Shown here: in pieces, positions 42,122 to 56,832 of the stretch | How positions within the stretch are numbered: the first letter of the stretch is position 1 | Layout of the letters: each line of letters starts with the position of its first letter | NCBI GenBank assembly: GCA_044343545.1 | Contig: JAWBZR010000002.1 | Coordinates: 3,522 to 67,521 of the forward strand | Direction: 5' to 3' | DNA from: Candidatus Aenigmatarchaeota archaeon | GTDB taxonomy: Archaea > Aenigmatarchaeota > Aenigmatarchaeia > CG10238-14 | DNA length: 64,000 nt | Notes under the pieces: model-generated | Told to the model about the DNA's origin: nothing | Databases searched by the model: none | The model's input: only the letters and a program-made list of their open reading frames with translations | Made by a program: the position numbers and the translations under genes

Positions 42122-42225
42122 TCACCCTTTACGCTCTGGCCGGGATTTGAACCCGGGTCACGGGAGTTCTGCTTATTATTGACAGTCCCGTATGATTAGC
42201 CTCAAGGATGATTGGGCCAGCTACA
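42122..42225 (-). tRNA. tRNA-Asp (anticodon GUC) with two introns: a canonical 13-nt intron at 37/38 and a 16-nt insertion in the D-arm
   Basis: Reverse complement: GCTCTGG TA GTGTAGCTGGCC[CAATCATCCTTGAGGC]TAATCAT ACGGGA CTGTCA[ATAATAAGCAGAA]C TCCCG TGAC CCGGGTTCAAATCCCGG CCAGAGC G. The spliced form closely matches archaeal tRNA-Asp as recalled for Methanocaldococcus. Confidence 0.75.
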
Positions 42226-42332
42226 CTACCAGAGCAATTAAGATTTTTTTTATTAAAAGAATTTATAAAAATTTTTGCTGGGTTGGCAGTATAGCTATTT
42301 TTGATCAATAACACATCACCGTGAGTGAATGA

Positions 42333-42448
<116 letters not shown>

Positions 42449-42833: not shown

Positions 42834-42948
42834 ATCCCCCCGGCCGGATTTGAACCAGCAACCCTTCGGTTTCTGACGAGCATACGCCGGTGACGAATGC
42901 TTTTAGCAAACGTCTACAGCCGAATGCTCTACCGTTGAGCTACGGGGG
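42834..42948 (-). tRNA. tRNA-Tyr (anticodon GUA) with an intron of about 43 nt at the canonical position
   Basis: Reverse complement: CCCCCCG TA GCTC AACGGTA GAGC A TTCGG CTGTAG[A CGTTTGCTAAAAGCATTCGTCACCGGCGTATGCTCGTCAGAA]A CCGAA GGGTT GCTGG TTCAAAT CCGGC CGGGGGG A. The C1:G72 pair is the archaeal Tyr identity element. Confidence 0.8.
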
Positions 42949-43000
42949 GTCATAATTACAATAATCAATTTAATTAAAATATTTTAACCATATAATTTTT

Positions 43001-50995: not shown

Positions 50996-51086
50996 AGCCC
51001 CGTCGTCTAGATGGCTTTGCCAGGATAACGGTCAAGGATAGCGGGCTTTGGACCCGTTGACAGCGGTTCGAATCCGCTCGGGGCTA
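50996..51086 (+). tRNA. tRNA-Gln (anticodon UUG) with an insertion (intron) of about 19 nt in the D-arm
   Basis: AGCCCCG TC GTCT AGATGGCTTTGCCAGGATAACGGTCAA GGAT A GCGGG CTTTGGA CCCGT TGAC AGCGG TTCGAAT CCGCT CGGGGCT A. The A1:U72 pair and 3' half match archaeal tRNA-Gln. The 5' half is 19 nt too long. Confidence 0.7.
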
Positions 51087-51121
51087 TAAAATCAAATAGA
51101 TTAATATTTACTCTATTTTTT

Positions 51122-51754
51122 ATGCAATTAAGGCAAGTGTATGATGAAATTGCAGATAGTTGGAGTAATTTTAGAACAAAACCCAAAAAATCCATACCTT
51201 TTGATAGAATAAGAGGTTTTGTGCTGGATGTTGGCTGTGGCAATGCAAGAAACATGATACCTTTGCTTAAGAAAGGAGTAAAATGCGTTGGAATAGATTT
51301 TTCAAAAAATATGATAAAAAACGCTTTGAAGTTGTGTGAAAAGCATGAAGTAGAAGCAGATTTTGTATTAGCAGACATGCTTCATCTTCCTTTCAAGAAA
51401 AAAGTGTTTGACGTGTGTTTATGCATATCAACCCTTCATCATTTGGATGATAGGTTGAAAAGAATAAAAGCTTTAAAGGAAATCAAGAGGGTTTGCAAGA
51501 AAGACATCTACATATTGGTGTGGTACAGATGGCAAATCTTTCACATAAAACATTTATTAAAAAATTTCATGCATTTCGGAGACGTATATGTAGAATGGAG
51601 AAAAAGAAACAAGATATTATATCGATACTATCATCTTTATACGAAGCACGAGCTAGAAAGAGATTTAAGTTTGGCTAGGTTAAAATTAATAGAAATTAAA
51701 ATAACTAAAGAAAATAAAAAAAAGGATTTGTTTGCATATTGCACGGTGGTTTAG
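51122..51754 (+). CDS. Class I SAM-dependent methyltransferase
   Basis: Motif I VLDVGCGNARN, motif post-I GIDFS, DMLHLPF. 210 aa. Confidence 0.6.
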   Translation: MQLRQVYDEIADSWSNFRTKPKKSIPFDRIRGFVLDVGCGNARNMIPLLKKGVKCVGIDFSKNMIKNALKLCEKHEVEADFVLADMLHLPFKKKVFDVCLCISTLHHLDDRLKRIKALKEIKRVCKKDIYILVWYRWQIFHIKHLLKNFMHFGDVYVEWRKRNKILYRYYHLYTKHELERDLSLARLKLIEIKITKENKKKDLFAYCTVV

Positions 51755-52669
51755 GTGAAGTCATGTAGCAATTGTAAAAACAAAGCCATTTACTTTAGAA
51801 TGAATGAAGGTAGATATTATTGCAAAAAATGTTTTTCTAAAAACATTGAAGATAGAGTGAAAAGAGTCATAAGAAATTTCAATTTAGTTGATAATGGAGA
51901 TAATATAGCTGTAGCCCTTTCTGGAGGAAAAGATTCGTCAAACACTCTCTATATTCTTAAAAAAATATTTGAAAAAAATCCTAAAATCAGAATTTTTGCC
52001 ATAATTGTTGATGAAGGTTTTCATTTTAGAAAAGAAGCTATAAAAAAATCTAAAAAACTTTGCGAAGAGATTGGTGTAGAGTATTACATATTTTATTTCA
52101 AGAAAGAGGTTGGGAAAACTATGGATAGTATTGGTAGAAAATTTAAAGATAAAAACATGTGCAGTTATTGCGGTGTTCTTAGAAGGTACTTGATTAATAA
52201 AAAGGCAAGAGAATTAAAGGCAAATAAAATAGCTTTAGGACATAACTTGGATGATGAGGTACAAAGCATAATAATGAATATTTTCAAGGGAGATTTTCTT
52301 CGAATGGCAAGGTTTGATTTTATGCCAAAAATAAGAGAAAATACAAAATTTGTACCACGGATAAAACCGCTTGCTATGATACCGGAGAAGGAGTCTGCTA
52401 TTTATGCTATAACCAACAATTTGCCCATTTCCCTTTCTCATTGCCCATATGCAGCTCACAATCACTTGAGAATGGAAGTAAAGTATTTTTTGAATAAACT
52501 TGAGTTCGAATCTCCAGGAATAAAATATTCTATATTCAACAGTGGAAGAAAGCTTGCTAAAATATTGAAGGAAAATATGAAGATAGGGGAGATAAATAAC
52601 TGCAAGATTTGTGGAGAACCTAGCTCAGAAAGTGTGTGTCAAGCATGCAAGATTATTGAGAAATTATAG
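51755..52669 (+). CDS. ncsA: PP-loop ATPase of the NcsA/Ncs6/TtuA family (tRNA thiolation) with N- and C-terminal Zn-ribbons
   Basis: PP-loop ALSGGKDSS, CSNC...CKKC N-terminal and CKIC...CQAC C-terminal Zn fingers. 304 aa. Confidence 0.7.
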   Translation: MKSCSNCKNKAIYFRMNEGRYYCKKCFSKNIEDRVKRVIRNFNLVDNGDNIAVALSGGKDSSNTLYILKKIFEKNPKIRIFAIIVDEGFHFRKEAIKKSKKLCEEIGVEYYIFYFKKEVGKTMDSIGRKFKDKNMCSYCGVLRRYLINKKARELKANKIALGHNLDDEVQSIIMNIFKGDFLRMARFDFMPKIRENTKFVPRIKPLAMIPEKESAIYAITNNLPISLSHCPYAAHNHLRMEVKYFLNKLEFESPGIKYSIFNSGRKLAKILKENMKIGEINNCKICGEPSSESVCQACKIIEKL

Positions 52670-52759
52670 AATCATCATATAAATCCTTCAAGAGGCTTGA
52701 AAAGATCCTGTTTGACAAATTAAAATCTTTATTATACTCAAGCATTTTTGCCAAGAAAA

Positions 52760-52930
52760 TCACCCTTTTTTATAATTATTTTCAATTTCCGCTATCTTTT
52801 CTTGCAAAAAAGCTATCCTATCTTGCCAATATTTGACCTGCCTCAAGTTTTTTGCTTTGAATAGTTGAGCCTTTGCATTAAACAATTCTTCTCTATAAAA
52901 CCTCAATCTAAGCAGGTCTCGTTTGTTCAT
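52760..52930 (-). CDS. Possible small coiled-coil protein (56 aa)
   Basis: MNKRDLLRLRFYREELFNAKAQLFKAKNLRQVKYWQDRIAFLQEKIAEIENNYKKG. No homology recognised. Confidence 0.2.
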   Translation of the reverse strand: MNKRDLLRLRFYREELFNAKAQLFKAKNLRQVKYWQDRIAFLQEKIAEIENNYKKG

Positions 52931-53032
52931 TTCAAATCACTATATTACTTTTTAGTGGTTCTTATATATAAATGTTACTACTATAAAATAGAAATATTAT
53001 TTTATAGATATTGAAGTAGATAAATTTCAATT

Positions 53033-54607
53033 ATGATTACAGAGAGAGAGTTTGCCAAAATTTTTCTGAAAGAGTTTAGAGCAAGGAAGCCGAAAACAAA
53101 AGAAGAAGTGATCAAGCTTAAAAGAGAATTGGCGGCAAAGTTTGGCATAGAAGAACCGACAAATCCAGATATACTGAAGTATGCAAGCGATGCATTTATA
53201 GAAAAGTACAGATCTCTTTTTGAAATAAAACCGACGAGAACCATATCCGGCGTGGCTACTATTACGGTTGCTTGTAAGCCAGCTTATTGTGGCGGTAACT
53301 GCAGTTATCGTCCTCCTTTAAGCAAGTTTGTGCCCAAGAGCTATTCTGCAAATGAACCAGCTATACAGAGAGCTATAAGAAACAAGTTTGACCCTTATAG
53401 ACAGGTGAGAGATAGATTGAGCCAATATAAAATAATGGGTCATCCCACGGACAAGATAGAAATCATAGTTTTGGGCGGAACCTTTTTGGCAACAGAAAAG
53501 GAATATCAGCATAAATTTATTAAGGGAATTTTTGACGGATTAAACGGAAAGAGAGCTTCCACTTTGGAAGAAGCAAAAAGGATCAACGAAACAGCAAGAC
53601 ATAGATGTGTAGGTTTAACGATAGAGACAAGGCCAGACTATTGTTTCGAGGAGCATGTCGATGCTTTATTGGAGTATGGCTGCACGAGAATAGAGTTGGG
53701 AATGCAATCGATATATAATGACGTCTTGGATAGAGTTAATAGAGGTCATCATGTTGAAGAAACTATAAGAGCTATACAAATTGCAAAGGATTCTGCTTTT
53801 AAGATCATATCTCATGTGATGCCATTCTTGCCTGGCTCAAGTGTTGAGAGGGATATAGATATGTTTAGGGAAATTTTTAGAAGTGAAGATTTGCAAGTAG
53901 ACGAATTCAAGATATATCCTTGCGTTGTTGTTGAAGGAACAAAACTCTACGAGGAATGGAAGCAAGGAAAATATACTCCACCAACTTTGGAAGAAGCAGT
54001 CAAAGTTATTGTTGAAATGAAAAAAATGGCACCTCCTTGGGTGAGGTTCAGGAGAATTTTTAGAGATATTCCGGCAAACGAAATTGTTGCTGGTGTGAAG
54101 AAAAGTAACTTAAGAGAAATAGCGATAGAAAGGTTAAAGAAAGAGGGTTTGTGGTGTAGGTGCACCCGTTGTAGAGAGCCAGGGCATGCAAAGAAAATTT
54201 ACTGGAGAGAAGTAGATAAAAGTCATATAAAGCTTGTCAGGAGAGATTATAGAGCATCGGGCGGAGATGAAATATTTCTTTCGTTTGAAGATGTCAAGAA
54301 TGATGTGCTTGTAGCTTTACTACGGCTAAGAATACCATATAAGCCGCATAGAAGAGAAATAGATGATAAGACAGCGTTGATAAGAGAGATTCATACCTAT
54401 GGAAAAATGGTGCCTATAGATAAAGATGATTCGAATAGCTGGCAACATAAAGGTTTTGGCTCATTGTTGCTTGAAGAAGCAGAAAGAATTGCTAAGGAAG
54501 ATTTTGACAAGAAAAAAATGATAGCTATATCGGGAGTTGGAGTAAAGAGTTGGTTTATGAAGCATGGATATAAGTATGAAGGACCTTATATGAGCAAATT
54601 TATTTAA
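53033..54607 (+). CDS. elp3: Elp3 homolog (radical SAM + GNAT, tRNA U34 carboxymethylation)
   Basis: ...KPTRTISGVATITVACKPAYCGGNCSY..., radical SAM core, C-terminal GNAT (QHKGFGSLLLEEAERIA). 524 aa. Confidence 0.85.
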   Translation: MITEREFAKIFLKEFRARKPKTKEEVIKLKRELAAKFGIEEPTNPDILKYASDAFIEKYRSLFEIKPTRTISGVATITVACKPAYCGGNCSYRPPLSKFVPKSYSANEPAIQRAIRNKFDPYRQVRDRLSQYKIMGHPTDKIEIIVLGGTFLATEKEYQHKFIKGIFDGLNGKRASTLEEAKRINETARHRCVGLTIETRPDYCFEEHVDALLEYGCTRIELGMQSIYNDVLDRVNRGHHVEETIRAIQIAKDSAFKIISHVMPFLPGSSVERDIDMFREIFRSEDLQVDEFKIYPCVVVEGTKLYEEWKQGKYTPPTLEEAVKVIVEMKKMAPPWVRFRRIFRDIPANEIVAGVKKSNLREIAIERLKKEGLWCRCTRCREPGHAKKIYWREVDKSHIKLVRRDYRASGGDEIFLSFEDVKNDVLVALLRLRIPYKPHRREIDDKTALIREIHTYGKMVPIDKDDSNSWQHKGFGSLLLEEAERIAKEDFDKKKMIAISGVGVKSWFMKHGYKYEGPYMSKFI

Positions 54608-55410: not shown

Positions 55411-56832
55411 ATGAAATATGACAAAATTCTAAAAGAGGTTTTAAAAAAAATCACGCCTAAATCAAAAGAAGAAAAAAAAATCAAGTCACTGAGTAAAAAA
55501 ATACTTGAAACAGCAAATCATCTTTCATTTTTCTACGGAGCTAAGGCTATTTTAGCCGGTTCATTAACAAGAAATACATGGTTGCCAAATAAAAATGAAA
55601 TAGATGTTTTTATCCTCTTCCCGAAAAATTTGAGCATAAAACATTTAGAGGAAAATGGTTTGGAAGTTGGCAAAAAAATAGTAGAAGAATTAGGTGGCAA
55701 GTGGACAATAGAATATGCGCAACACCCTTACATAAGAGGAACAATAAATGGCATAAACATCGACATCGTTCCTTGTTACAAATTAGAAAAAGGAGAAAAA
55801 ATAATATCTGCTGTTGATAGAACGCAATTTCATGTAGAATACTTGGAAAATAAGATATCTAAAAAATTAAGTAGCGAGGTTAGACTGTTAAAACAATTTT
55901 TGAAAGCTAATGGCTTGTATGGCGCTGATGCAAAAACAAATGGCTTTTCCGGATATTTATGCGAGTTGTTGATAATTCATTACAAGAATTTTTTGAATTT
56001 TCTTGAAGCAGCAAAAAATTGGAGAGTAAAAGAAATAATAGACATAGAAAATCAATGGAAAAAAGAAGAGTACAATCATTTGAAGAAAAAGTTTAAGGAT
56101 GAAGTTTTGATAGTGATAGATCCTGTAGACAAGGAAAGAAACGTTGCTTCGGCGGTTAGCGCTTATAACTTTTTCAAACTGAAAAAATTAGCAAGAGAAT
56201 TTTTGGAAAATCCAAGTGAAAGTTTCTTTTTTGAAAAAGAAATTAAACCTCTTTCTAAAAAAGAATTTGATGAGGTTTTAAAAGAGAGAGGAACTGAAAT
56301 AATAGGTATATTTTTCGAGCCACCAAAGATAGTTCCAGATATATTATGGCCACAATTAAGAAAAGCAACCAAAAGATTAGAAAGCATAATTGAAGAGTAC
56401 GAGTTTTCTGTTTTGAAAAGCGATTGTTGGACTGATGAAAAAAAGATTGCAGTCATTTTATTAGAAATGCAAGTAAGCAATTTACCTAGAATTGATAAAA
56501 TAATTGGCCCATGGGTTTTTGATGAAAAAAACGCGAAAAATTTTGCTGAGAAACACAAAGCTGATGCAATAGCAGGACCATACATAGAAGATAATTGTTG
56601 GGTGGTTGAGGTTAAGAGAAAATGGACATCTGCTAAACTTAAATTAATAGATTCTATAAGTAAAGATAAGGAAATTCTCAAAGCAAAAGGAATACCAAAT
56701 TTTATTGCCGAGCAATTATCAAAAGATTTCAATGTAGTTTCAAACGATGAAATAAAAAATTATTTCAAAAACAAAGAGTTTGCAATATTCATGAGAAAAT
56801 ATTTTGAAAAGGAAAATCTTGCTTTATTTTAG
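55411..56832 (+). CDS. cca: CCA-adding enzyme (archaeal class I tRNA nucleotidyltransferase)
   Basis: GSLTRNTWLPNKNEIDVFILFP class-I NTase head. 473 aa. Confidence 0.7.
   Translation: MKYDKILKEVLKKITPKSKEEKKIKSLSKKILETANHLSFFYGAKAILAGSLTRNTWLPNKNEIDVFILFPKNLSIKHLEENGLEVGKKIVEELGGKWTIEYAQHPYIRGTINGINIDIVPCYKLEKGEKIISAVDRTQFHVEYLENKISKKLSSEVRLLKQFLKANGLYGADAKTNGFSGYLCELLIIHYKNFLNFLEAAKNWRVKEIIDIENQWKKEEYNHLKKKFKDEVLIVIDPVDKERNVASAVSAYNFFKLKKLAREFLENPSESFFFEKEIKPLSKKEFDEVLKERGTEIIGIFFEPPKIVPDILWPQLRKATKRLESIIEEYEFSVLKSDCWTDEKKIAVILLEMQVSNLPRIDKIIGPWVFDEKNAKNFAEKHKADAIAGPYIEDNCWVVEVKRKWTSAKLKLIDSISKDKEILKAKGIPNFIAEQLSKDFNVVSNDEIKNYFKNKEFAIFMRKYFEKENLALF

Follow-up and report, generated by a model that had tools for sequence, protein, structure and literature searches.

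A probable BHB intron in the D-loop of a tRNA-Gln(UUG) gene from an Aenigmatarchaeota archaeon

The tRNA-Gln(UUG) gene at positions 50996–51086 (+ strand) of the 64,000 nt stretch of archaeal DNA analysed here (the window) is 91 nt long, as against 73 nt for a normal archaeal tRNA-Gln, and the 18 nt of excess lie wholly in the D-arm. This raises the question of whether the additional nucleotides are spliced out of a precursor, are kept in a mature tRNA with an expanded D-arm, or have broken a gene that is decaying. The evidence set out below indicates that the locus very probably encodes a precursor tRNA-Gln(UUG) carrying an 18 nt protein-spliced archaeal BHB intron at tRNA positions 15/16.

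A first-pass annotation of this DNA had described the acceptor stem, anticodon arm and T-arm as canonical, and this was confirmed in the sequence. The gene reads AGCCCCG UC GUCU AGAUGGCUUUGCCAGGAUAACGGUCAA GGAU A GCGGG CUUUGGA CCCGU UGAC AGCGG UUCGAAU CCGCU CGGGGCU A, in which the acceptor stem is AGCCCCG/CGGGGCU (A1:U72), the anticodon arm is GCGGG-CUUUGGA-CCCGU with the anticodon UUG at 51048–51050, and the T-arm is AGCGG-UUCGAAU-CCGCU, preceded by a 4 nt variable loop, UGAC. The discriminator A is at 51086 and CCA is not encoded. The parts of the gene are as follows.

50996–51086, + strand: complete tRNA-Gln(UUG) gene, 91 nt pre-tRNA body (from the sequence, from ARAGORN after intron removal and from a partial Rfam match)
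50996–51010, + strand: 5′ exon, comprising the acceptor strand AGCCCCG, U8 C9, the D-stem 5′ strand GUCU, and A14 G15
51011–51028, + strand: predicted intron AUGGCUUUGCCAGGAUAA, 18 nt, in the D-loop at tRNA positions 15/16 (sole BHB candidate restoring tRNA-Gln; position common to eight relatives)
51029–51086, + strand: 3′ exon, comprising the remainder of the D-loop (CGGUCAA), the D-stem 3′ strand GGAU, and the anticodon arm through to the discriminator

The exons are collinear and contiguous within 50996–51086, and the gene is therefore neither split nor permuted. A self-splicing intron of group I or group II was rejected on size, the insert being 18 nt long and the catalytic core of such introns hundreds of nucleotides; there were no matches to Rfam intron models in the window. 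An ORF of 123 aa on the opposite strand (51007–51378, −) overlaps both the tRNA-Gln gene and the start of the downstream methyltransferase gene, and is almost certainly spurious.

Standard tRNA searches fail on the uninterrupted reading of this gene. Run on the unspliced gene in default and intron modes, ARAGORN returned either nothing or a spurious tRNA-Val with a 4 nt intron. The Rfam tRNA model matched only 51013–51086, at 29.4 bits (gathering threshold 29), with an alignment that used GGCUUUG as a false 5′ acceptor strand. When exactly 51011–51028 was removed, ARAGORN called tRNA-Gln(ttg) of 73 nt. The spliced D-arm is GUCU AGCGGUCAA GGAU, and its loop fits the consensus AGYGGYCAA, which is the D-loop of the other archaeal tRNA-Gln genes retrieved (>100 compared). 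With A1:U72, the anticodon UUG, a cloverleaf, a 4 nt variable loop and an AGYGGYCAA D-loop, the product has the features of an archaeal tRNA-Gln(UUG). All position pairs in the gene that allowed a fully paired 4 bp helix flanked by 3 nt bulges were then enumerated and each product was run through ARAGORN; the 51011–51028 solution was the only one to give tRNA-Gln. The central proposal of the first-pass annotation, a genuine tRNA-Gln(UUG) with an intron in the D-arm, is upheld. Its insert of about 19 nt at 51015–51033 was correctly placed in the D-arm, but the length and boundaries have to be changed to 18 nt and 51011–51028, at 15/16; the insert string that it quoted was 25 nt long and did not agree with its own coordinates, 51015–51033.

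A strict hBHBh′ motif, that is, two 3 nt bulges around a 4 bp helix with helices of at least 2 bp on either side, can be drawn at the junctions of this intron. Its elements, with their conservation in the nine 15/16 sequences described below, are listed here.

51003–51004, + strand: 5′ strand of outer helix h, U8 C9, pairing with G35 G36 (C9-G35, U8-G36)
51005–51008, + strand: exon strand of central helix H, GUCU (the D-stem 5′ strand), pairing with 51023–51026 (four of four pairs in nine of nine sequences)
51009–51011, + strand: 5′ bulge AG|A, predicted cleavage after 51010 (3 nt bulge AGR kept in nine of nine)
51012–51022, + strand: inner helix h′, UGGC/GCCA with a UUU loop (intron hairpin), present in the whole-gene MFE and centroid structures
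51023–51026, + strand: intron strand of H, GGAU, which mimics the D-stem 3′ strand at 51036–51039
51027–51029, + strand: 3′ bulge AA|C, predicted cleavage after 51028 (3 nt bulge AAY kept in nine of nine)
51030–51031, + strand: 3′ strand of h, GG, which would become G18 G19 of the mature D-loop

The placing of the cleavage sites after the second nucleotide of each bulge follows the geometry of the canonical 37/38 intron, where the 4 bp helix takes in the first two bases of the anticodon (PMC4090602). The outer helix h is weak (2–3 bp, one G-C plus G-U pairs), and its third pair, G7-U37, is feasible only with the acceptor stem open, with which it competes. The GGAT...GGAT repeat that had been remarked upon in the first pass is real (51023–51026 and 51036–51039), and is accounted for by the motif, since the intronic and the exonic GGAU each pair with GUCU, the former in the precursor and the latter in the mature tRNA.

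The ability to draw such a motif is in itself weak evidence, because mononucleotide shuffling of the 91 nt gave a BHB with h of at least 3 bp and h′ of at least 4 bp in 6 % of cases and because the window contains 85 BHB motifs of equal quality on its two strands. What carries weight is that excision restores a consensus tRNA exactly, together with the comparative data, and not the occurrence of a BHB. Folding of the whole gene was also rejected as a diagnostic: the MFE structure of the full 91 nt forms the h′ hairpin with a different outer pairing, not the complete BHB, and its z-score of −1.7 is unremarkable.

Comparative data came from a scan of species-representative genomes in which tRNA-Gln(UUG) genes were sought that are longer than usual between position 15 and the anticodon loop. 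It yielded at least 120 matches; those listed were nearly all archaeal. Intron positions were assigned by BHB enumeration together with ARAGORN. Seven genes among the matches listed, the window's included, have an intron after position 15. The others are from two Aenigmatarchaeota MAGs (L007 and L074), one Micrarchaeota MAG (L079), two Hadesarchaea MAGs (L031 and L049) and a genome labelled Methanosarcinales (L055), the last of which was excluded from the later 15/16 comparisons. A scan of metagenomes provided three further contigs with a 15/16 intron (L121–L123); even with these, the 15/16 group is a small one among the matches listed. Collinearity with the window at about 44.5–53.4 kb was found for L074 (75 % nucleotide identity over 7.7 kb), for L007 (72 %) and for a third Aenigmatarchaeota MAG, L003 (69 %). 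Since these contigs are collinear, the window can be assigned to an Aenigmatarchaeota-like DPANN archaeon, and the tRNA-Gln loci of the window, L074, L007 and L003 are orthologous; L074 and L007 have their introns at 15/16.

In all nine 15/16 sequences, the central helix H has four of four pairs, the bulges are AGR and AAY, and the excised product is 73 nt long, while the lengths of h′ (1–8 bp) and of the intron (14–26 nt) vary. Covariation was assessed in a MAFFT alignment of eight of the nine with the pre-tRNA BHB structure imposed. Helix H was 100 % paired, with both sides changed in two of its four pairs, and h′ was 96 % paired, with both sides changed in four of four. In the outer helix, U8 pairs with G in eight of eight sequences and C9 with G in six of eight. 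The observed pairing was matched by none of 500 shuffles, and sliding the pairing partners reduced it to 25–52 %. The intronic strand of H follows the D-stem of its own gene: GGAU or GGAC occurs with GUCU, GCAC with GUGU, and GCCC with GGGU. The computations thus show the BHB motif, a canonical tRNA on excision, and an intron that is conserved with covariation.

These observations bear on three other explanations of the locus. One is that it is a decaying pseudogene, a tRNA-Gln copy broken by the 18 nt insertion in a genome with a working tRNA-Gln(UUG) elsewhere; the lack of an ARAGORN call on the unspliced gene and a partial Rfam match that only just reaches the threshold of 29 bits would fit such a history. 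The exons are flawless, however: every stem is fully paired, and both the D- and the T-loop fit the consensus. The interrupted gene also occupies a shared syntenic location in three Aenigmatarchaeota MAGs. The BHB geometry has moreover been held through compensatory substitutions and length changes, as neutral decay would not do, and we regard a pseudogene as most improbable. The first-pass annotation had taken its own reading to be refuted if no BHB-like structure could be drawn at the insert boundaries and a second intact tRNA-Gln(UUG) existed elsewhere. With the boundaries as corrected, the sequence admits a canonical BHB, and relatives have kept the gene together with its intron, so that the reading as an intron survives.

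It may instead be supposed that the 18 nt are retained, so that a further hairpin enlarges the D-arm of the mature tRNA-Gln. In favour of this, the UGGC-UUU-GCCA hairpin is a stable one that both the MFE and the centroid structures contain, and the intron's own UGG can be read as containing G18 G19, as it was in the first pass. This is nevertheless very unlikely. The GG inside the insert is absent from L123, L031 and L049, whereas the YGGYCAA that follows the insert is invariant, which places the true G18 G19 in the 3′ exon. What is conserved is the BHB geometry, with its 3 nt bulges and 4 bp helix, and not a shape compatible with a D-loop; the insert varies between 14 and 26 nt, yet its removal always leaves 73 nt. 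The intron could also have the boundaries first proposed, with about 17–19 nt removed from within 51014–51033, at 19/20 or 20/21, leaving the D-loop AGAUGGUCAA. Removal of 17 nt (51015–51031 or a shifted equivalent) does leave a plausible D-loop, there being a GG at both ends, but there is no 4 bp helix with 3 nt bulges at these places, and the exhaustive scan gave only the solution with cuts after gene positions 15 and 33 for tRNA-Gln. For cuts after 17, 18 or 19, a pairable 4 bp helix could not be found by hand and none was present in the exhaustive scan. Nor can these boundaries be applied to L031, L049 and L123, which are without the upstream GG, and they are hardly to be credited.

With the 15/16 intron as the preferred reading, a course of splicing can be proposed. 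Before splicing, GUCU of the D-stem 5′ strand would pair with the intronic copy of GGAU instead of with the real D-stem 3′ strand. The archaeal splicing endonuclease EndA would recognize the resulting BHB and cut after 51010 and after 51028, and a ligase of the RtcB type would join the exons at the predicted junction ...GUCUAG|CGGUCAAGGAU.... GUCU could then pair anew with the exonic GGAU, to give the canonical 73 nt tRNA with the D-loop AGCGGUCAA, and CCA would be added post-transcriptionally to the spliced tRNA-Gln. Cleavage and ligation themselves, and the enzymes that would perform them, we infer, with backing from the experiments on D-loop introns of other archaea described below. A CCA-adding enzyme is encoded in the window (55411–56832), as is the tRNA-Gln-dependent GatE (1384–2880). 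A scan of 49 window ORFs against Pfam found neither EndA nor RtcB.

The GatE-like protein is 498 aa long, compared with about 630 positions in the model NF003107, which it matches above the cut-off (567 bits) in two stretches; this suggests that it is shortened and is without an internal or insertion domain. Three genes lie 3′ of tRNA-Gln on the same strand, together with which they span 50996–54607 (+). These genes and that of the GatE-like protein are as follows.

1384–2880, − strand: GatE-like protein
51122–51754, + strand: Trm9-like class I methyltransferase (among its PDB matches, Trm9 5cm2_Z spans nearly the full length)
51755–52669, + strand: NcsA-type [4Fe-4S] U34 tRNA thiolase (PDB 6scy, E=1.9e-56)
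53033–54607, + strand: Elp3 (TIGR01211, 652 bits)

The Trm9-like, NcsA-type and Elp3 proteins are the enzymes expected for (m)cm5s2U34, here beside one of the tRNAs expected to be their substrates. The collinear matches of L074, L007 and L003 reach into this cluster.

Interrupted tRNA genes are not confined to tRNA-Gln in this genome. Introns occur in half of the window's six tRNA genes, namely those for tRNA-Gln, tRNA-Asp and tRNA-Tyr, the latter two with the following features.

42132–42235, − strand: tRNA-Asp(GUC) with two introns, just downstream of the 5S rRNA gene (42334–42448)
42167–42179, − strand: canonical 37/38 intron of tRNA-Asp, 13 nt, with a good BHB
42196–42212, − strand: D-arm intron of tRNA-Asp, 17 nt, probably at 21/22, relaxed HBh′ (the only solution with four of four base pairs)
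42835–42949, − strand: tRNA-Tyr(GUA), archaeal in its C1:G72 pair, the anticodon loop interrupted by a long intron (43 nt in ARAGORN intron mode; a 46 nt insertion in the Rfam alignment)

The tRNA-Gln and tRNA-Asp genes come from an intron-rich genome. Neither ARAGORN nor Rfam returned a match for the tRNA-Asp gene. Drawn at 21/22, its D-arm intron has H formed by GGCC/GGCU, the bulges CA|A and AA|U, h′ formed by UCA/UGA, and the D-loop AGCUGGCCCA; a drawing at 15/16 is possible but weaker, with mismatches in the central helix H. The quality of the BHB and the likeness to tRNA-Gln introns of the 21/22 class both point to 21/22 as the most likely position. The first-pass annotation had given the tRNA-Asp and tRNA-Gln introns the same position, a proposal that the better drawing at 21/22 does not favour; most likely the two positions differ.

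The same annotation had suggested that the two genes represent a lineage-specific class of D-arm introns. This is contradicted by the matches listed in the species-representative scan, where a BHB intron interrupts the 5′ half of the tRNA-Gln(UUG) gene in more than 110 archaeal cases, spread over Thaumarchaeota, Bathyarchaeia, Woese-, Nano-, Micr- and Aenigmatarchaeota, Hadesarchaea and Thermoproteales. An intron after position 10 (10/11) is present in 65 genes of the approximately 120 matches listed, from Thaumarchaeota and many Bathyarchaeia; these introns, which follow G10, have a conserved AGGA...CCGNCGAR frame and a variable hairpin, A/U-rich and of 16–31 nt. Seventeen genes among the matches listed, from Micr-, Woese- and Nanoarchaeota and Thermoproteales, have an intron after gene position 22 (21/22), and a few of those listed have introns at 25/26 and other sites. 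The insertion points 10/11, 21/22 and 25/26 differ from the 15/16 of the window, while the tRNA, the BHB logic and the use of an intronic copy of the neighbouring exon strand to form H are shared. In Micrarchaeota, tRNA-Gln genes that match the 3′ half of the window gene at 96 % identity over 54 nt have their intron at 21/22, while the 15/16 site is used again in the distant Hadesarchaea. One of the collinear Aenigmatarchaeota contigs also differs from the window in this respect.

JAGVVZ010000002.1 5494–5571, + strand: tRNA-Gln of L003 (Aenigmatarchaeota RIFCSPHIGHO2_02_FULL_35_12), intron at 25/26, syntenic orthologue of the window gene

As the orthologue has its intron at 25/26 and the window gene at 15/16, the position of the intron has changed between orthologues within the phylum. 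Together with its relatives, the window gene thus provides a small data set on the change of intron position between orthologous tRNA genes. It is conceivable, although we put it forward only tentatively, that the D-arm of tRNA-Gln(UUG) is a recurrent hotspot for BHB introns across phyla (at least four positions) with quick turnover in DPANN. Were the hotspot real, one would have to reckon with introns being actively gained, lost or transposed, or with selection for the disruption of this region, beyond the Thermoproteales, from which this has been described, and 15/16 would be an addition to the catalogued positions.

For archaea, it is textbook knowledge that non-canonical BHB introns occupy 'seemingly random' positions. 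The non-canonical (non-37/38) BHB introns of archaeal tRNAs, with the strict hBHBh′ motif, are reportedly the subject of work by Marck and Grosjean in 2003 and by Sugahara et al. in 2007/2008. Reviews give a reported length of 11–129 nt for such introns, typically 12–25 nt (PMC4090602, PMC4033280), and tRNAscan-SE 2.0 detects them; a survey of 217 genomes counted 673 non-canonical BHB introns (PMC8450103). Non-canonical positions, including those in the D-loop, are well established (PMC4090602, PMC3241643, PMC5829648, PMC8450103). The positions given in one review are 20/21, 22/23, 25/26, 29/30, 30/31, 45/46, 53/54, 56/57 and 59/60 (PMC4090602); 15/16 is absent from this list, which ends in 'etc.', the comparison being with that review.

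Two D-loop introns invite direct comparison. That of Aeropyrum pernix pre-tRNA-Thr2(UGU) forms a canonical BHB outside the standard position; it undergoes splicing in vivo, and EndA by itself suffices to cleave it in vitro (PMC3241643). That of Methanopyrus kandleri pre-tRNA-Glu(UUC) is at 20b/21 (PMC5829648). The window gene shares the location in the D-loop with both; it differs from them in tRNA, exact position and organism, and the two other organisms have (αβ)2 EndAs. The M. kandleri intron is a relaxed HBh′, in contrast to the strict motif of the window tRNA-Gln. Among DPANN and Hadesarchaea, an L3 loop in EndA accompanies the disruption of many tRNA genes (PMC5829648).

The consequences for annotation are practical. 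As ARAGORN misses or miscalls the gene and Rfam matches only half of it, genomes of this lineage would appear to be without tRNA-Gln(UUG) unless a BHB-aware search is used; the same point has been raised for incomplete tRNA sets in DPANN (PMC5829648). In its 4 bp helix, two 3 nt bulges and flanking helices, its shortness, its location outside the anticodon loop, the restoration of a cloverleaf on excision and the presence of a multi-intron gene (tRNA-Asp) in the same genome, the tRNA-Gln intron resembles the non-canonical BHB introns already known from archaea. It differs in its host, a DPANN (Aenigmatarchaeota-like) archaeon and not one of the well-catalogued Thermoproteales or Thaumarchaeota. 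The intron is an ordinary member of the known archaeal BHB class, reveals no new mechanism, and adds to that class a clean D-loop example with a strict BHB from the Aenigmatarchaeota.
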